Sequence record: PZ445456.1
From: a phage
Reading direction: 5' to 3' (one strand)
DNA: 39,315 nucleotides
Shown here: piece after piece, positions 1-24,551 of the stretch
Numbering within the stretch: position 1 is the stretch's first letter
Layout: every line of letters begins with the position of its first letter
The notes under the pieces: generated by a model
Database searches by the model: none
Told to the model about the DNA's origin: nothing
What the model saw: only the letters and a program-made list of their open reading frames with translations
Made by a program: the position numbers and the translations under genes

Positions 1-1761
1 ATGTCACAATCCCAAGAAGCTAAGAACGCGCTAATCATTGCGCAACTTAAGGGTGACTTCGTGGCCTTCCTGTTCGTCTTATGGAAGGCTCTGAACTTAC
101 CTAAACCAACCAAGTGTCAGATTGATATGGCACGTACACTCGCTAACGGCGACCACAAGAAGTTTATCCTTCAGGCGTTCCGTGGTATCGGGAAGTCCTT
201 TATCACCTGTGCGTTCGTTGTGTGGGTGCTGTGGCGTGACCCTCAACTGAAGATACTCATCGTGTCTGCCTCCAAGGAACGTGCTGATGCTAACTCCATC
301 TTCATCAAGAACATCATCGACCTCCTTCCGTTCCTCTCTGAGTTGAAACCTCGACCGGGACAGCGAGACTCCGTGATTAGCTTCGATGTTGGCTTGGCTA
401 AACCAGACCACTCTCCCTCTGTGAAGTCTGTAGGTATCACTGGTCAGTTGACTGGTAGCCGTGCTGACATCATTATCGCAGATGACGTTGAGGTTCCCGG
501 TAATAGCTCTACGAGTTCTGCCCGTGAGAAGCTCTGGACGTTGGTAACTGAGTTTGCTGCATTACTTAAGCCGCTGCCTACCTCTCGTGTTATCTACCTT
601 GGCACACCTCAAACCGAGATGACGCTCTACAAGGAACTTGAGGATAACAAAGGTTACAGTACAGTAATCTGGCCAGCACAGTATCCTCGTAATGACGCTG
701 AGGCTCTCTACTATGGGGACCGCTTGGCTCCGATGCTTAAGGCTGAGTATGATGAGGGCTATGAGTTACTTCGTGGTCAACCTACTGACCCTGTTCGATT
801 CGACATGGATGACCTCCGTGAACGTGAACTCGAATATGGTAAAGCTGGCTACACTCTTCAGTTCATGCTTAACCCGAACCTTAGTGATGCCGAGAAGTAC
901 CCTCTACGACTCCGTGACGCTATCGTGTGCGCTGTGGACCCTGAACGTGCCCCATTGTCTTACCAGTGGCTTCCGAACCGTCAGAACCGCAATGAGGAAC
1001 TCCCTAACGTTGGTCTGAAGGGTGATGACATCCATGCGTTCCATACGTGCTCTTCTCGTACCGCTGAGTATCAGTCTAAGATTCTGGTCATTGACCCAAG
1101 TGGTCGTGGTAAGGATGAGACCGGGTATGCAGTCCTCTACTCACTGAACGGTTACATCTACCTGATGGAAGTCGGAGGGTTCCGTGGTGGCTACGATGAT
1201 GCTACCCTAGAGAAGCTCGCTAAGAAGGCCAAGCAGTGGAAGGTACAGACAGTCGTCCATGAGTCCAACTTCGGTGATGGTATGTTCGGTAAGATTTTCT
1301 CTCCGATTCTCCTGAAGCACCATAAGTGTGCCTTAGAGGAAATCCGTGCTAAGGGCATGAAGGAGATGCGAATCTGCGATACTATCGAGCCGTTGATGGG
1401 TGCACACAAGCTGGTCATTCGTGATGAGGTTATCCGTGAGGACTACCAGACTGCTCGTGACCTTGATGGGAAACACGATGTCCGCTACAGTGCGTTCTAT
1501 CAGATGACCCGTATGACTCGTGAGAAGGGCGCTGTGGCACACGATGACCGCATTGATGCTATCGCATTGGGTATCGAGTTCCTTCGTGAAGGGATGCTTG
1601 TGGACAGCCGTGTAGGTGAAGAAGAGATGACCCTTGAGTTCCTTGAACACCACATGGAGAAACAGACCATTGGTGGTGATGCTATCCATAGCTACGAGGC
1701 TGGTGGCGTAGACATCTACTACGAGGACGATGGAGACTCTAGCTGCTTCATTGAGTGGTAA
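1..1761 (+). CDS. 19: Terminase large subunit (DNA maturase B), 586 aa
   Basis: Near full-length match to T7 gp19 as recalled ([25 protein letters not shown]..., [38 protein letters not shown]); RBS AAGGAGG lies at the window end just upstream across the circular junction. Confidence 0.95.
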
Positions 1762-1781
1762 TAGATAATAGGAGGTATATA

Positions 1782-2228
1782 ATGAGAGTGGCAATTGATA
1801 GTATCACTGGTTGCCACATCTTCCAAGGGTGTAAGACTAAGGGTGGCTACGGTAGGATTCGTGTTAATGGTGTTCATTGGATGGCACATCGATACGCACT
1901 ATTCGTCCACCTGAAGCGTCCTTTAAGGGAAGGATGTGTGGTAATGCACTCCTGTGATAACCCTTCGTGTGTCAATCCAGCGCACTTATCTGAGGGAACA
2001 CAGAAAGAGAACATGGCTGACTGTAAGACAAAGGGCCGTATGGTTCGTGGAGGTTCTTCGGGTCCACGCAAAAGTCTTACAGAGAGGCTCCAAGAGTCAT
2101 TTGAGAAACGACTAAAGGCTGTGCTTGAGGCTAATGGCTCAGACGCTGAGGTTGCTAAGAGACTTGGTTTAAACATCCAGTGGGTCAAGAAGGCTCGATC
2201 TGGTAAACTAAATATGCACGTAAAGTGA
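1782..2228 (+). CDS. HNH homing-type endonuclease with C-terminal HTH-like region, 148 aa
   Basis: ATG at 1782 preceded by AGGAGG (1770-1775). HNH signature CHIF..C..GYGRIRVNGVHWMAHRYALFVH...HSCDNPSCVNPAHL; C-terminal EVAKRLGLNIQWVKKARSG resembles a helix-turn-helix. Confidence 0.8.
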   Translation: MRVAIDSITGCHIFQGCKTKGGYGRIRVNGVHWMAHRYALFVHLKRPLREGCVVMHSCDNPSCVNPAHLSEGTQKENMADCKTKGRMVRGGSSGPRKSLTERLQESFEKRLKAVLEANGSDAEVAKRLGLNIQWVKKARSGKLNMHVK

Positions 2229-2294
2229 CTTACTATGCACTATGGGCACCCTATTGAGTGAGGTATAAAAACCTAATGAAATCAAGGGTGTCCC

Positions 2295-2317
2295 TAATAC
2301 GACTCACTATTGGGAAG
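2295..2317 (+). promoter_or_regulatory. Phage RNAP promoter, right-end (phiOR-equivalent)
   Basis: TAATACGACTCACTATTGGGAAG; 22/23 match to this genome's own promoter consensus; position after gene 19 region as in T7. Confidence 0.7.
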
Positions 2318-2476
2318 GGCACCCTAAGACAACTTAAAGACACTTAAAGACTGCATATGCAAAGTGCATACTTAGTGACTAACTCTTAGAGAGACCCTTA
2401 CAGTGAGGGATGATGGTAATAGTAATTACATCCCTACTATCAGTGTAACCATCAAGTATAACAAGGAGGACGCTCT

Positions 2477-2632
2477 ATGCGCTTACTATCCGTGCTCAAG
2501 ACACTGGCAACGCATCGAGTGACTTACAAATTTCTCGTTGTACTTGCTGCTTCCATTGGTCTCGCATCTAGTGCTGAACACATCGGTGAACTGGAGACTC
2601 TGCTTTGTTCTCTACTCACTTGTGTTCCTTAG
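2477..2632 (+). CDS. Small hydrophobic protein, 51 aa (gene 19.5 position)
   Basis: ATG with strong RBS AAGGAGGA 8 nt upstream; MRLLSVLKTLATHRVTYKFLVVLAASIGLASSAEHIGELETLLCSLLTCVP; sits about 180 nt downstream of the right-end promoter as gene 19.5 does in T7. Confidence 0.45.
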   Translation: MRLLSVLKTLATHRVTYKFLVVLAASIGLASSAEHIGELETLLCSLLTCVP

Positions 2633-2639
2633 ACTGATC

Positions 2640-3215
2640 ATCGGCGCTTAGTGCGCTCTTAGTGATTATGGTCGATATACATCTTCCCTATAATCACTGT
2701 AAGAAGTCAACTCTAAGAGTAACCCTTATGTACCACTCTATGGTCTACAGGGTCTCTTAGGGTCTCTCACGTAGTCTCACCTTATGATAGAGCCTCTGTG
2801 GTTAACCTTATGAGACTTGATGTACCCCTTTAAGAATCCTACAGAAAAATCTGAGAGGGTATCTCATAGTTCATACAAAGTGTTTCCCCCCCTATGGCCT
2901 CCTTCAGTTACCCCAAAGAGTCGGCCCCTATGGTAACTTTATGTTTACTTAATGTCAATCCTTATGTGTGACATTGGGTGAATCACTTGGTGTTACCACT
3001 AGATGTAGTGCTTAGTGTGACCTTATGACCACTATATGTAGTCCTCTCTGTGTCCCTATCTGTAAGTGACCATTGAGTTACTCCTTATGTCATCACCTTA
3101 TGTCATCTCCTTATGTCATCACCTAGAGTCTCTCCTTATGGCTGGCTATCCTTATGTTAACCTTCAGTCGGTGCCTTCAGTCGATAGACCTTATGTTGTC
3201 ACTTAAAGACCATAC
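2640..3215. repeat. Genome-terminus region with arrays of short direct repeats (11 CCTTATG copies plus CCTATGG and CCTTCAGTCG variants)
   Basis: CCTTATG at 2724, 2780, 2806, 2960, 3021, 3083, 3096, 3109, 3134, 3150, 3189; triple tandem CCTTATGTCATC(A/T) at 3083-3122; CCTTCAGTCG twice at 3161-3183. Non-coding; positionally equivalent to the T7 terminal repeat with flanking short-repeat arrays. True ends and repeat length cannot be read from sequence alone. Confidence 0.6.
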
Positions 3216-5763: not shown

Positions 5764-8415
5764 ATGACTAACGTAATCAACGCACCAAAGAACGACTTCT
5801 CTGACATCGCTAACGCAATCCAGCCGTACAACATTCTGGCTGACCACTACGGTGCACAGCTTGCAGCTACACAGCTTGAGTTAGAACACGAAGCGCACAC
5901 CGAAGGCGAGAAGCGTTTCCTTAAGGCAATGGAACGTCAAATCAAAGCGGGTGAGTTCGGCGATAACGCAGTAGCTAAACCTCTCCTGTCATCCCTCGCA
6001 CCGAAGTTTATCGAGGCGTGGAACACTTGGTTCGCTGAAGTGGAAGCGAAGCGTGGCAAGCGTCCAGTGGCCTACAATCTGGTACAGAAGGTTACACCTG
6101 AAGCTGCTGCATTCATCACACTGAAGGTCACGCTGGCTTGCTTGACCAAAGAGGAATACACGAACCTTCAATCGGTCGCCACTAAGATTGGTCGCAGTAT
6201 TGAAGACGAGCTACGTTTTGGTCGCATCCGTGACGAAGAAGCGAAGCACTTTAAGAACCATGTACAAGAAGCACTCAACAAGCGCGTTGGTATCGTCTAC
6301 AAGAAAGCATTCATGCAAGCGGTTGAAGGCAAGATGTTAGACGCTGGTCAACTACAGACCAAGTGGACCACATGGACACCTGAAGAAGCAATTCACGTTG
6401 GTGTACGCATGTTGGAACTACTCATTGGTTCTACTGGTCTCGTTGAGTTACACCGCCCGTTCGCTGGGAACATCGAGAAGGATGGCGAGTACATCCAGTT
6501 AACAGAACAGTATGTAGACCTGTTATCCAAACGTGCTGGCGCACTGGCTGCAATCGCTCCGATGTATCAGCCTTGCGTGGTCCCGCCTAAGCCTTGGACT
6601 TCTCCGGTCGGCGGTGGCTATTGGGCTGCTGGTCGCAAGCCTCTCTCTCTGGTTCGCACTGGTAGCAAGAAGGGACTGGAACGTTACAACGACGTGTACA
6701 TGCCTGAAGTTTACAAGGCGGTGAACATCGCACAGAATACTCCTTGGAAGATTAACAAGAAGGTTCTGGCAGTGGTCAACGAGATTGTGAACTGGAAGCA
6801 TTGCCCGGTTGAAGATGTACCCGCTCTGGAACGTGGAGAACTTCCGGTCAAACCTGATGACATCGACACCAACGAGGCATCACTCAAAGCATGGAAGAAA
6901 GCGGCCTCCGCAATCTACCGTAAAGAGAAGGCTCGCGTGTCTCGTCGCATGAGCATGGAGTTCATGTTGGGTCAAGCCAATAAGTTCGCACAGTTTAAAG
7001 CTATCTGGTTCCCGATGAATATGGACTGGCGCGGTCGTGTGTACGCGGTCCCGATGTTCAACCCGCAAGGCAACGACATGACCAAAGGCTTGCTGACGCT
7101 CGCTAAAGGTAAACCAATCGGTGTAGATGGGTACTACTGGCTGAAGATTCACGGTGCTAACACTGCTGGCGTGGACAAGGTGGACTTTGCAGAACGCATC
7201 AAGTTCATTGATGACAACCATGAGAACATCCTGAGCGTAGCGGCTGACCCAATTGCTAACACTTGGTGGGCCGAGCAAGACTCTCCGTTCTGCTTCCTCG
7301 CGTTCTGCTTCGAGTATGCAGGTGTGCAACACCACGGGATGAACTACAACTGCTCTCTTCCGCTGGCGTTCGATGGTAGCTGCTCCGGTATTCAGCACTT
7401 CTCCGCGATGCTCCGTGATGAGGTTGGCGGTCGTGCGGTTAACCTGCTGCCGAGCAAGGAAGTACAGGACATCTACCGCATCGTTGCGGAACGTGTGAAC
7501 GAAATCCTGAACCAAGATGTTATCAACGGGACCGACAACGAAGTAGAGACCGTGACCAACAAGGACACAGGGGAAATCACTGAGAAGCTCAAGCTGGGTA
7601 CTAAAGAACTAGCTGGTCAGTGGCTGGCCTATGGTGTGACTCGCAAGGTCACTAAGCGTTCAGTCATGACATTGGCTTACGGTTCCAAAGAGTACGGCTT
7701 CCGTGACCAAGTTCTTGAGGACACCATTCAGCCAGCTATCGACGATGGCAAGGGCTTGATGTTCACTCAACCGAACCAAGCGGCTGGCTATATGGCTAAA
7801 CTGATTTGGAACGCCGTAACGGTGACTGTGGTCGCTGCGGTTGAGGCAATGAACTGGCTGAAGTCTGCTGCTAAACTGCTGGCTGCTGAGGTCAAGGACA
7901 AGAAGACCAAAGAGGTTCTGCGCAAACGCTGTGCGGTACATTGGGTAACTCCTGATGGCTTCCCTGTGTGGCAGGAATACCGTAAGGCAGTACAGACCCG
8001 CTTGAACCTGATGTTCTTAGGTCAGATTCGTTTGCAGCCTACCGTGAACACCAACAAGGATAGCGGCATTGATGCACGTAAGCAGGAGTCAGGTATCGCA
8101 CCTAACTTTGTTCACTCAATGGATGGTAGCCACCTGCGCATGACTGTGGTCCGCTCCAATGAGGTCTACGGTGTGGAATCGTTCGCACTGATTCACGACT
8201 CCTTTGGCACTATCCCTGCTGATGCTGGCAACCTGTTTAAAGCAGTGCGTGAAACTATGGTCAACACTTACGAAGAGAACGATGTACTTGCAGACTTCTA
8301 TGAGCAATTTGCTGACCAGTTGCACGAATCACAGCTTGACAAGATGCCTGAGATGCCAGCTAAAGGTTCTCTGGACCTGCAAGAAATCCTTAAGTCAGAC
8401 TTTGCGTTTGCCTAA
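5764..8415 (+). CDS. 1: Single-subunit DNA-dependent RNA polymerase, 883 aa
   Basis: Collinear match to T7 RNAP over the full length; motif C IHDSFGT and specificity-loop residues R746/N748/R756/Q758 present (QTRLNLMFLGQIRLQPT). Confidence 0.98.
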   Translation: MTNVINAPKNDFSDIANAIQPYNILADHYGAQLAATQLELEHEAHTEGEKRFLKAMERQIKAGEFGDNAVAKPLLSSLAPKFIEAWNTWFAEVEAKRGKRPVAYNLVQKVTPEAAAFITLKVTLACLTKEEYTNLQSVATKIGRSIEDELRFGRIRDEEAKHFKNHVQEALNKRVGIVYKKAFMQAVEGKMLDAGQLQTKWTTWTPEEAIHVGVRMLELLIGSTGLVELHRPFAGNIEKDGEYIQLTEQYVDLLSKRAGALAAIAPMYQPCVVPPKPWTSPVGGGYWAAGRKPLSLVRTGSKKGLERYNDVYMPEVYKAVNIAQNTPWKINKKVLAVVNEIVNWKHCPVEDVPALERGELPVKPDDIDTNEASLKAWKKAASAIYRKEKARVSRRMSMEFMLGQANKFAQFKAIWFPMNMDWRGRVYAVPMFNPQGNDMTKGLLTLAKGKPIGVDGYYWLKIHGANTAGVDKVDFAERIKFIDDNHENILSVAADPIANTWWAEQDSPFCFLAFCFEYAGVQHHGMNYNCSLPLAFDGSCSGIQHFSAMLRDEVGGRAVNLLPSKEVQDIYRIVAERVNEILNQDVINGTDNEVETVTNKDTGEITEKLKLGTKELAGQWLAYGVTRKVTKRSVMTLAYGSKEYGFRDQVLEDTIQPAIDDGKGLMFTQPNQAAGYMAKLIWNAVTVTVVAAVEAMNWLKSAAKLLAAEVKDKKTKEVLRKRCAVHWVTPDGFPVWQEYRKAVQTRLNLMFLGQIRLQPTVNTNKDSGIDARKQESGIAPNFVHSMDGSHLRMTVVRSNEVYGVESFALIHDSFGTIPADAGNLFKAVRETMVNTYEENDVLADFYEQFADQLHESQLDKMPEMPAKGSLDLQEILKSDFAFA

Positions 8416-8422
8416 CGGAATC

Positions 8423-8445
8423 TAATACGACTCACTATTGGGAGA
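8423..8445 (+). promoter_or_regulatory. Phage RNAP promoter (phi1.1A-equivalent)
   Basis: TAATACGACTCACTATTGGGAGA, exact consensus; followed by a G9 run and an AT-rich CTTTAAG-repeat leader. Confidence 0.8.
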
Positions 8446-8512
8446 CCCTTGGGGGGGGGTTTCCCCTACTTTAAGATAACTTTAAGTTTTAACTTTAAGA
8501 GGAAACATAATC

Positions 8513-9070
8513 ATGTTTACTTTCATCACTTCAGTAGGCGCTCTCGTAGCAACCATTCTTGCAGCAACATACTACAACCGTTCAAAGGTATTTCTCACTA
8601 AGCTAATCAAAGAAGAGAAGAACTCTCACGCACTCAAAGAGAGACTTGAAGATGGGTGGCGAGAGAAGCAGGAACTGGCTGGTCGAATCCGTACCTTAGA
8701 GTTCGAACAACAATATGACATGTCGAACCAACGAGAACTCATTGAGCGTCTACGCGCTGAGGCAGTGGAGTACCGCAAGGAACTTAAAGAGGCAAAGAGT
8801 ATCATCCGTGAGTACACACACAGTGACATCACGTCTATCAAGTTTACTGCTCACATCCCGGATGCTGGATGGAAGCGCACTGAGTTCAAGCTAGGTATAG
8901 GGTCTTGCGGCAAAGAGGTTACGTGTTTGCACTGGAAAGAACAGTCGGACCGCTACCTGCTGACACAGACGTGCACTGATGGTGAGCGCAAAGAGTTCAC
9001 CTATTATAAGAAAGACGTAGCTGGTTGCATTGAGATTGCACGTAAGGTTGCAGACAATACGACTCACTAA
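8513..9070 (+). CDS. Membrane-anchored coiled-coil protein with Cys-containing C-terminal domain, 185 aa, function unknown
   Basis: RBS GAGGAAACATAATC-ATG; N-terminal TM helix FTFITSVGALVATILAATYY, predicted coiled coil (aa ~30-100, KE/RE-rich), C-terminal domain with 4 Cys; no T7 homologue recognised at this position. Confidence 0.7.
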   Translation: MFTFITSVGALVATILAATYYNRSKVFLTKLIKEEKNSHALKERLEDGWREKQELAGRIRTLEFEQQYDMSNQRELIERLRAEAVEYRKELKEAKSIIREYTHSDITSIKFTAHIPDAGWKRTEFKLGIGSCGKEVTCLHWKEQSDRYLLTQTCTDGERKEFTYYKKDVAGCIEIARKVADNTTH

Positions 9071-9077
9071 TGGGAAA
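9055..9077 (+). promoter_or_regulatory. Phage RNAP promoter (phi1.1B-equivalent), embedded in the 3' end of the preceding ORF
   Basis: CAATACGACTCACTAATGGGAAA; the promoter codons encode the C-terminal NTTH-stop of ORF 8513..9070. Confidence 0.6.
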
Positions 9078-9087
9078 CACTGAAAGT

Positions 9088-9129
9088 TAAACTCAAGGTC
9101 ATCTACATGGTGGCCTTCATGATTAACTG
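9088..9129 (+). promoter_or_regulatory. RNase III-type processing hairpin (R1.1-like), copy 1 of 3
   Basis: TAAACTCAAGGTCATCTACATGGTGGCCTTCATGATTAACTG; upper stem AAGGTCA/TGGCCTT, lower stem AGTTAA/TTAACT with internal loop; resembles T7 R1.1 as recalled. Confidence 0.55.
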
Positions 9130-9159
9130 TCAACGATACTACCAAGAGGAAATAACATT

Positions 9160-9309
9160 ATGCGTACCAACTTTGAACCAACCACTAAGCGCAACAACGT
9201 CATCAACGAACACGGTGCTGAATGGCAGGAACGTAAAGACCGCATGAAGAAACGCCACAAGACAAAGCGTGGTAACTCTGAGAAACGTAACTGGAAGGAG
9301 GCACTCTAA
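9160..9309 (+). CDS. 1.1: Gene 1.1 small basic protein, 49 aa
   Basis: MRTNFEPTTKRNN...RKDRMKKRHKTKRGNSEKRNWKEAL; basic like T7 gp1.1 (MRNFEKMTKRSNRN...); stop overlaps the gene 1.2 start (TAATG). Confidence 0.6.
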   Translation: MRTNFEPTTKRNNVINEHGAEWQERKDRMKKRHKTKRGNSEKRNWKEAL

Positions 9310-9581
9310 TGGGTCGCTTATATAGTGGTAACTTAATAGCATACAAAGACGCTATCGAACGCCTCAAAGAAGACCACGATGTGAGTGTGGTCGTTGAGAC
9401 TTTCCGCTATGAGAACTATGCGAGGATGCGCTGGGTATCCGGTGAGACTCTTCGAGTGGTCTTACGGAATGGCTTAGTGTTAACCTCTAAGTGTTTCGAA
9501 CAGGACGATGAAGACGTTCGCTGCAATGCACAGACTGAATGGCTTCGTAAGGTACACAGTGACCTGAAGCACTGGAAGTAA
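9309..9581 (+). CDS. 1.2: Gene 1.2 protein (host dGTPase inhibitor family), 90 aa
   Basis: MGRLYSGNLIAYKDA...DEDV..N..TEWL...DLKHWK matches T7 gp1.2 (MGRLYSGNLAAFKAA...QLKDWK). Confidence 0.85.
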   Translation: MGRLYSGNLIAYKDAIERLKEDHDVSVVVETFRYENYARMRWVSGETLRVVLRNGLVLTSKCFEQDDEDVRCNAQTEWLRKVHSDLKHWK

Positions 9582-24528: not shown

Positions 24529-24551
24529 TAATACGACTCACTATTGGGAGA
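24529..24551 (+). promoter_or_regulatory. Phage RNAP promoter (phi10-equivalent, major capsid promoter)
   Basis: TAATACGACTCACTATTGGGAGA, exact consensus; predicted start at G24546. Confidence 0.85.

Follow-up and report, generated by a model that had tools for sequence, protein, structure and literature searches.

What is the gene that stands between the RNA polymerase gene and gene 1.1 in some T7-group phages, and what could its protein do? The question arises for a phage DNA of 39,315 nucleotides (nt) (sequence record PZ445456.1; this whole stretch is called the window here), in which an open reading frame (ORF) of 185 amino acids (aa) runs on the plus strand from an ATG start to a TAA stop, positions 8513-9070. 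A preliminary description, made from the letters alone, had picked out this ORF as an uncharacterised, membrane-anchored coiled-coil early protein, the best candidate for an undescribed accessory function, and had suggested that the T3 lineage may carry a gene, 1.05, at this place. We found that the ORF is almost certainly gene 1.05 of a Berlinvirus-type (BA14/285P/PhiV-1-like) phage of the T7 group.

This identity follows from a match to the family PF25755 and from the annotation of 1.05 at the same position in phages BA14, 285P, PhiV-1 and Kvp1 (EU734171, GQ468526, MT542512 and FJ194439). Residues 106-176 of the product, gp1.05, matched positions 2-72 of the 73-position model of PF25755 (Phage_T3_1_05, 'Enterobacteria phage T3 gene 1.05 protein') with 97 bits and E = 6.2e-28, the gathering cut-off being 27 bits; in a Pfam scan the family was matched by 100 of 100 homologues. 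The four phages named carry the same gene, also of 185 aa, at the same position and with the same two flanking promoters; nucleotide identity of the window gene to theirs is 91-98%. Over positions 8400-9200 the window is 92-98% identical to Escherichia phages nasanit, PhiV-1, P483, 285P and BA14, and amino-acid identity of gp1.05 to the PhiV-1 and P483 proteins is 96-98%. The gene order is 1, 1.05, 1.1, 1.2, 1.3; gene 1.05 thus has the position that goes with PF25755, between gene 1 and gene 1.1 and flanked by promoters phi1.05 and phi1.1, a layout annotated also in BA14, Kvp1 and T7M. The product is of the long ('fusion') form of the BA14/KP32 type, with a hydrophobic helix and a coiled-coil extension before the 1.05 domain; the BA14 record labels it 'fusion protein with gene 1.05', and none of the four records assigns a function.

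The suggestion of a T3-lineage gene 1.05 was thus correct (PF25755; annotation in BA14 and Kvp1), and 'undescribed' was an overstatement, as there are a Pfam family, PHROG families and a GenBank name, 1.05. Pfam gives the family without an assigned function; the PHROGs matched by gp1.05 (8103 and 6440 by the whole protein, also 6379 and 9238) are, every one, of 'unknown function'. NCBIfam and PADLOC searches returned 0 families, and no family of defence or superinfection-exclusion proteins was matched in PADLOC, Pfam or PHROG models. A characterised homologue was sought in Pfam, NCBIfam, PADLOC, PHROGs and PDB (by sequence and by fold); there was none. No functional study of gene 1.05 was found in the full-text literature, where the matches were genome tables and one remark on the locus. 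The Kvp1 genome paper names gene 1.05 among the regions differing from phage Berlin (PMC2579914). The gene is already known and named.

Is the protein real? In comparison with eight relatives sharing its N-terminal module, the ratio of non-synonymous to synonymous divergence (dN/dS) ranged from 0.07 to 0.37 in codons 1-104 and from 0.03 to 0.28 in codons 105-185; the maxima come from the near-identical phage nasanit with its very few substitutions. Taken together, both halves gave 0.03-0.15. Informative pairs (dS 0.5-0.96) gave dN/dS of 0.05-0.13, and this held also when promoter-overlapping codons were removed. With synonymous divergence so high and non-synonymous divergence so low, the conservation is not imposed by overlapping DNA signals alone; gp1.05 is a real protein under purifying selection across its relatives.

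Homologues of the gene were found by tblastn in 525-600 deposited phage genomes, nearly all of them T7-like and 38-41 kb long. When 1.84 billion representative proteins were searched exhaustively with HMMER, 95 matched, every one of 75-242 aa and carrying the domain at the C-terminus or close to it; there was no new domain partner of the 1.05 domain among these 95. A scan of bacterial genomes found three loci with a homologue, one of them on a Clostridia contig from a metagenome-assembled genome; the two loci looked at (Pseudomonas rubra and Sphingobium contigs) were T7-like phage or prophage DNA.

We consider next the three parts of the protein, from the C-terminus. AlphaFold2, supplied with a 100-sequence alignment, produced a model (mean predicted local distance difference test, pLDDT, 92.9) in which one unbroken helix spans residues 2-102, strands fill residues 106-177 and the last 3 residues are disordered; the C-terminal domain modelled alone had the same six strands (pLDDT 85). 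Residues F125, G128, G133, Q152, K160, Y164 and G171 of this beta-barrel are invariant, about 25 more positions are at least 90% conserved and the core has the motif FKLGxGxCGK; motifs of the 1.05 family persist where identity has fallen to 30-40% and the phages use different promoters. The mean net charge of the barrel is +0.5 (range of -2 to +4), that is, near neutral.

The preliminary description had spoken of a Cys-containing C-terminal domain. The domain is there (six strands, PF25755); of its four cysteines, the only conserved ones are C132 (98 of 100 homologues) and C154 (87 of 100, with His in 11%). C138 is variable (10%), and H114 and H140 are conserved in 30% and 35%. With fewer than three conserved Cys/His ligands, a zinc finger or another Cys-rich metal-binding domain of that type is ruled out; a two-ligand metal site shared across subunits could, from the conservation pattern, be formed at C132 and C154. 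A P-loop (Walker A) is ruled out as well: G128-IGSC-G133-K134-E135 has no Ser/Thr at 135, K134 is 73% conserved and the fold is all-beta.

One substitution in the barrel sets the window apart. Position 172, the Arg of an otherwise invariant G-R-I-E motif, is Cys in the window and Arg in BA14, 285P, PhiV-1 and Kvp1; C172 is unique to the window. It could be a sequencing error, a mutation acquired in laboratory passage or a hypomorphic allele.

A search for sequence relatives in PDB, made with the single sequence and with a 100-sequence profile, gave none, the matches being coiled-coil and membrane-helix noise; Foldseek comparison of the full model with PDB gave nothing below E = 0.04. Weak fold matches of the barrel were mostly to nucleic-acid-binding Sm-like and WYL barrels, and in Pfam no one of the 100 family members matched LSM or Hfq families (Sm1/Sm2 motifs) at E up to 0.1; possible known counterparts are Sm-like small beta-barrels such as Hfq, LSm/Gemin6-7, SspB, WYL domains and ribosomal protein bL19. 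Among predicted viral structures (BFVD), 17 matched in Foldseek with E no higher than 1e-3; they are without exception uncharacterised proteins of T7-supergroup phages with hosts in Enterobacterales, Pseudomonas, Ralstonia, Aeromonas and Delftia. Beyond PF25755, the Pfam scan of 100 homologues returned only coiled-coil families below threshold.

The barrel also occurs by itself. The gp1.05 of T3 and of the T3-type phage T7M (90 aa) consists of a barrel, ~45% identical to the barrel of the window, and a 16-residue N-terminal extension, without membrane helix or coiled coil. Barrel-only proteins of 73-99 aa exist in T3/T7M and several other phages, and some family members have a coiled coil without an anchor.

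The helix that precedes the barrel has the properties of a coiled-coil stalk (pLDDT 96-98 in the AlphaFold2 model). Within residues 25-102, 18 of the 23 large hydrophobic residues fall into three of the seven heptad registers, and the power spectrum of hydropathy peaks at 3.5 residues (z = 4.6 versus shuffles). The stalks of 92 anchored homologues have a median length of 83 aa (10th-90th percentile, 72-88); 86 of these 92 are proline-free and heptad periodicity is significant in 68 of 91. Thus, the length and physical character of the stalk are conserved while its sequence is hypervariable. With ~80 residues, which as a full helix would span about 12 nm, the stalk probably oligomerises gp1.05, judging from heptads and model.

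The anchor and the stalk form a module that has been exchanged as a cassette. Nucleotide identity to phages Carena, BP12A and PP74 drops to 0.28-0.47 over 8528-8827, with flanks mostly at 0.75-1.00; in the comparison with Carena the drop (0.33-0.47) covers exactly this interval, i.e. anchor and stalk, and identity is 0.87-1.00 in the flanks and the barrel. As proteins, the window and Carena modules align without gaps at 30% identity, and no similarity of the window module to the PP74 module could be detected. The barrels are 85-99% identical despite these different N-modules (Carena, PP74). The gene 1.05 locus is a recombination hotspot.

We observed a second exchanged patch, at 8888-8947 (codons 126-145), where nucleotide identity to BA14, BP12A, PP74 and PYPS50 is 58-65%, with 90-100% in the surroundings. 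The changes are mostly synonymous; the pattern suggests that a small tract was brought in by recombination from a diverged lineage. A metagenomic variant, P0031 (110 aa, on three contigs, the longest of 12 kb), combines an anchor and a stalk of the window type with the promoter-dictated tail GRIEIARKVADNTTH and has almost no barrel.

The long coiled coil (helix 2-102; heptad z = 4.6) and the N-terminal transmembrane helix had both been correctly recognised in the preliminary description. The mean Kyte-Doolittle hydropathy of residues 1-19 is 1.88, and an equivalent hydrophobic N-terminal segment, of differing sequence, is present in 92 of 100 homologues. On average, Lys and Arg together number 0.04 ahead of the segment in these proteins and 2.3 over the next 12 residues; basic residues were seen after the helix in 90 of the 92 anchored homologues and before it in 4 of the 92. 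By the positive-inside rule, basic residues C-terminal of the helix indicate N-out/C-in topology. Only 0-5 residues are then predicted outside the membrane, the rest of the protein, beta-barrel included, being cytoplasmic; gp1.05 would be a single-pass protein of the inner membrane. We are fairly confident that the architecture and topology are as predicted.

A cleavable signal peptide is ruled out, since a basic n-region is lacking and the helix runs on unbroken. The i-spanins (lambda Rz, T7 gp18.5) share with gp1.05 an N-terminal membrane helix and a long coiled coil; however, the bulk of an i-spanin is periplasmic and its gene sits in the lysis cassette, whereas the bulk of gp1.05 is predicted cytoplasmic and its gene is in the early region. 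The wrong topology and the early-region locus rule this identity out; an Rz-like gene is annotated elsewhere in relatives, the phage has one of its own at the other end of the genome (by the matches to window positions 1-3000), and no o-spanin gene was found embedded in gene 1.05 or adjoining it.

Table 1. Gene 1.05, its parts and the neighbouring elements in the window
Feature	Position	Strand	Evidence
Gene 1, single-subunit phage RNA polymerase	5764..8415	+	883-aa ORF; matches in all relatives annotated RNA polymerase
Promoter phi1.05, TAATACGACTCACTATTGGGAGA, +1 at 8440	8423..8445	+	Pattern search; annotated phi1.05 in BA14 and Kvp1
Stem-loop in 5' leader of phi1.05 transcript	8441..8464	+	RNA fold
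AT-rich leader, three ACTTTAAG repeats (8468-8475, 8479-8486, 8492-8499)	8468..8499	+	Sequence
Shine-Dalgarno sequence of gene 1.05, AAGAGGA	8497..8503	+	Sequence; kept in relatives
Gene 1.05, coding sequence, 185 aa and TAA	8513..9070	+	ORF, identity to gp1.05, dN/dS
N-terminal transmembrane anchor, residues 1-21, predicted N-out/C-in	8513..8575	+	Hydropathy, homologues, asymmetry of basic residues
Exchangeable N-module cassette, codons 6-105	8528..8827	+	Drop of nucleotide identity versus Carena, BP12A, PP74
Coiled-coil stalk, residues 25-102	8585..8818	+	Model helix, heptad periodicity, stalk lengths of homologues
Conserved six-stranded beta-barrel, residues 106-177, PF25755	8828..9043	+	Pfam 97 bits, models, invariant residues
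Codon 172, TGC (Cys)	9026..9028	+	Arg in 97/100 homologues and in 11/11 Berlinvirus relatives fetched
Promoter phi1.1, CAATACGACTCACTAATGGGAAA, +1 at 9072	9055..9077	+	Pattern search; annotated phi1.1 in BA14, Kvp1 and T7M
R1.1-type RNase III hairpin	9081..9132	+	RNA fold -18.6 kcal/mol, weak alone (z = -1.7)
Gene 1.1, directly downstream	9160..9309	+	ORF; annotated 1.1 in relatives

The gene is framed by regulatory elements (Table 1), and at its 3' end it overlaps one. The 19-mer core of the phage promoter has 15 sites in the window versus 0.01 expected by chance; the 23-mer of phi1.05, a consensus promoter, is repeated identically at 24529-24551. Codons N182-T183-T184-H185 together with the stop (9056-9070) make up positions -16 to -2 of phi1.1, with TAA at -4 to -2, so the earlier claim of a complete phage promoter over the NTTH-stop end of the ORF was right (CAATACGACTCACTAATGGGAAA). 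There are three solutions of the stop-in-promoter problem among the relatives: TAA (window, BA14, others), TAG in the identical position (BP12A) and a TGA that lies two bases downstream of it (PP74, where it occupies -1 to +2 and the protein ends in NTTHY). Each of them costs one mismatch to the promoter consensus. In T7M the TAA of gene 1.05 lies likewise inside a promoter, here of T3 type, and an R1.1 hairpin follows the stop-in-phi1.1 arrangement as it does in the window.

The sequence of the R1.1-type hairpin is conserved in T7, T7M (where it is annotated as R1.1) and Klebsiella phage YMR1; the hairpin probably forms the 3' end of the 1.05 mRNA. By analogy with RNA processing in T7, transcription from phi1.05 would give a monocistronic 1.05 mRNA of ~670 nt with a stem-loop at each end. 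Rfam had no match over 8300-9400 at E up to 1. In phages SPLA4 and PYPS50 the 3' half of the hairpin region has given way to an insertion of ~75 bp, located between phi1.1 and gene 1.1, and the spacing of genes 1.05 and 1.1 is 165-168 nt versus ~90 nt in the window.

At the 5' side, pairing of the leader stem is kept by two variants among relatives, GGGAGACCC/GGGUUUCCC versus GGGAGCC-UUCG-GGCUUCC. The loop contains a run of nine G (8451-8459), where relatives, BA14, 285P, PhiV-1 and Kvp1 included, have G3-G5; the run is a homopolymer expansion or an assembly artefact. Further downstream, the AT-rich leader aligns with the region after T7 phi1.1B and with a stretch annotated as replication origin (rep_origin) in T7M; the T7M record calls the equivalent AT-rich stretch the primary replication origin. 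The leader is the counterpart of the AT-rich stretch in the primary replication origin of T7/T3, i.e. a putative origin.

How does the locus compare with T7? As had been stated in advance, T7 has just a short gap here: gene 1.05 is absent, and the T7 record annotates two promoters and no more between gene 1 and gene 1.1, which lie a short distance apart. In alignment with T7 (5831-6009), phi1.05 and the AT-rich leader (8423-8512) pair with T7 phi1.1B and the AT-rich origin region; phi1.1 and R1.1 (9055-9132) pair with T7 phi1.1A and R1.1. The flanking promoters had been called equivalents of phi1.1A and phi1.1B in this order, which is right by position and wrong by flanking sequence, the upstream one corresponding to phi1.1B and the downstream one to phi1.1A. 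As aligned, the promoter-plus-leader modules stand in swapped order relative to T7. The swap rules out T7 as a simple deletion derivative; it also means that gene 1.1 of T7 uses the leader type that precedes gene 1.05 here.

In distant relatives the gene is found in other places, and its context is always early genes or genes of nucleic-acid metabolism. Homologues lie directly upstream of the RNA polymerase gene in Pseudomonas phage PspYZU08 (3306-3635) and in the Pseudomonas rubra contig (3995-4294), and between DNA polymerase A and 5'-3' exonuclease in the Sphingobium contig (3860-4255). The homologue in Enterobacter phage EV136_1 (1144-1659) is annotated 'microtubule-binding protein'; we rejected this label as probably an annotation artefact caused by the coiled coil.

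The first 3000 nt of the window match the right end of the relatives' genomes, with terminase large subunit and an Rz-like gene (and, in some relatives, a homing/HNH endonuclease). Since the window opens in this right-end region, the genome is circularly permuted relative to BA14, gene 1 starting at 5764 versus about 3000.

What, then, could gp1.05 do? Because short relatives such as T3 gp1.05 are the barrel alone, we infer that the barrel is the functional core and that the anchor and stalk are an add-on, giving membrane localisation, probable oligomerisation and a reach of ~12 nm. Between otherwise near-identical phages, the barrel is near-invariant while the N-module is 30% identical or unrelated. 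We favour, tentatively and with the chances on balance against it, a mechanism of sequestration. The barrel would bind a conserved cytoplasmic partner; the long form of gp1.05, as a multivalent oligomer, would capture this partner at the inner membrane or relocate it there; the outcome would be an early, non-essential role in host takeover or counter-defence.

Gp0.4, gp1.2, gp2 and gp5.9 are small early proteins of T7-group phages that bind host proteins. Sequestration fits this base rate, and it fits the patchy distribution of gene 1.05, the neutral charge of the barrel and the hotspot locus; a near-neutral barrel also speaks for a protein binder rather than a generic DNA binder. Several observations weigh against this mechanism. 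The evidence points to no particular partner of the barrel, and topology and oligomerisation are predictions from sequence and model. Phages of Enterobacterales, Pseudomonas, Ralstonia, Aeromonas and Delftia all share the conserved barrel; such breadth would need a very conserved target and is atypical of an arms-race interface. Barrel-only forms imply that membrane capture is not a universal mechanism of the family, and a natural variant (P0031, 110 aa) does without the barrel. Finally, the Sm-like and WYL fold matches and the neighbourhood of nucleic-acid genes fit equally well an organiser of phage nucleic acid, which is the first alternative to be weighed.

Protein p16.7 of phage phi29 has an N-terminal membrane helix, a coiled coil and a small cytoplasmic C-terminal binding domain, which is helical. 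It has been described as an organiser of viral DNA replication associated with the membrane (PMC11476376). One could imagine, though we think it rather unlikely, that gp1.05 is an organiser of this kind, its barrel binding phage DNA or RNA or a protein of replication or transcription, and its anchor and coiled coil tethering phage DNA to the membrane. The three-part plan is indeed shared, and so is early expression, if early/middle expression of gp1.05 is deduced from its position and phi1.05. Gene 1.05 begins at the end of the origin-equivalent AT-rich region; in phages of enterobacteria and of Pseudomonas it adjoins the gene for RNA polymerase; its Sphingobium homologue has DNA polymerase A and the 5'-3' exonuclease as neighbours; a conserved stalk length would suit a spacer, and the weak matches of the barrel are of the Sm-like fold class. 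However, the barrel is near neutral, not basic, which is mildly against generic DNA binding, and the T3-type proteins have no anchor, so tethering is not the core role of the family. T7 replicates efficiently, and it has no gene 1.05. Furthermore, the C-domain is helical in p16.7 and all-beta in gp1.05, and therefore the likeness is an analogy only; no p16.7 chain was present among the PDB sequence and fold matches of gp1.05.

Superinfection exclusion or anti-defence activity had been offered as a speculation in the preliminary description; our results neither support nor exclude either role, and nothing favours them over others. Exclusion in the strict sense, with gp1.05 keeping the genome of a second, related phage from entering at the inner membrane, looks to us improbable. 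It would agree with early expression and membrane anchoring, and a hypervariable, cassette-exchanged module next to the membrane could track variable ejection proteins. However, just 0-5 residues are predicted outside the membrane and the conserved part would be ~12 nm inside the cytoplasm; the most conserved part is the least likely to contact an incoming phage; family members without anchor exist, and Pfam, PHROGs and PADLOC showed no similarity to a known exclusion protein. The predicted cytoplasmic bulk and the anchor-less short relatives such as T3 gp1.05 thus weaken exclusion at the level of the envelope.

That the conservation could come from overlapping DNA and RNA signals (origin, promoter, RNase III site), with a protein of little or no function, has hardly any probability left: the gene does lie between origin-like and promoter elements with codons 182-185 and the stop dictated by a promoter, T7 manages without it, the window has a substitution at a near-invariant Arg (C172) and P0031 has no barrel; however, dS reaches 0.96 and dN is lower by a factor of 10-30, both over the whole barrel and among N-modules of one type, a confident fold is predicted from co-variation in 100 sequences and the family motifs survive at 30-40% identity where the promoters differ, and by dN/dS conservation by DNA signals only is essentially excluded.

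One could speculate further, with the odds clearly against it, that the T7 supergroup has in gp1.05 its first membrane-tethered early effector, a coiled-coil 'ruler' of fixed length (~12 nm) presenting an unclassified barrel, either as an organiser of phage replication or transcription at the inner membrane or to disarm a conserved host factor by drawing it to the membrane; the conserved Cys/His positions could then form a metal or redox site between subunits. In the organiser case, gp1.05 would be a Gram-negative functional analogue of phi29 p16.7.

No lytic phages have been studied better than those of the T7 group, which also serve as workhorses in phage engineering and therapy, and gene 1.05, present in at least 525-600 deposited genomes and under strong purifying selection, has no assigned function. 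The analysis sharpens this known gap and overturns nothing in current understanding. It adds the topology, the conservation of stalk length, the exchange of N-modules as cassettes, the swapped order in which the promoters correspond to those of T7, and three solutions by which a stop codon is fitted into a promoter, the locus being a compact example of dual coding; a deletion reaching the 3' end of gene 1.05 would destroy promoter phi1.1. For functional work it defines the targets: a cytoplasm-facing barrel with a few invariant residues, an anchor and stalk of conserved length and an N-module exchanged like a cassette.

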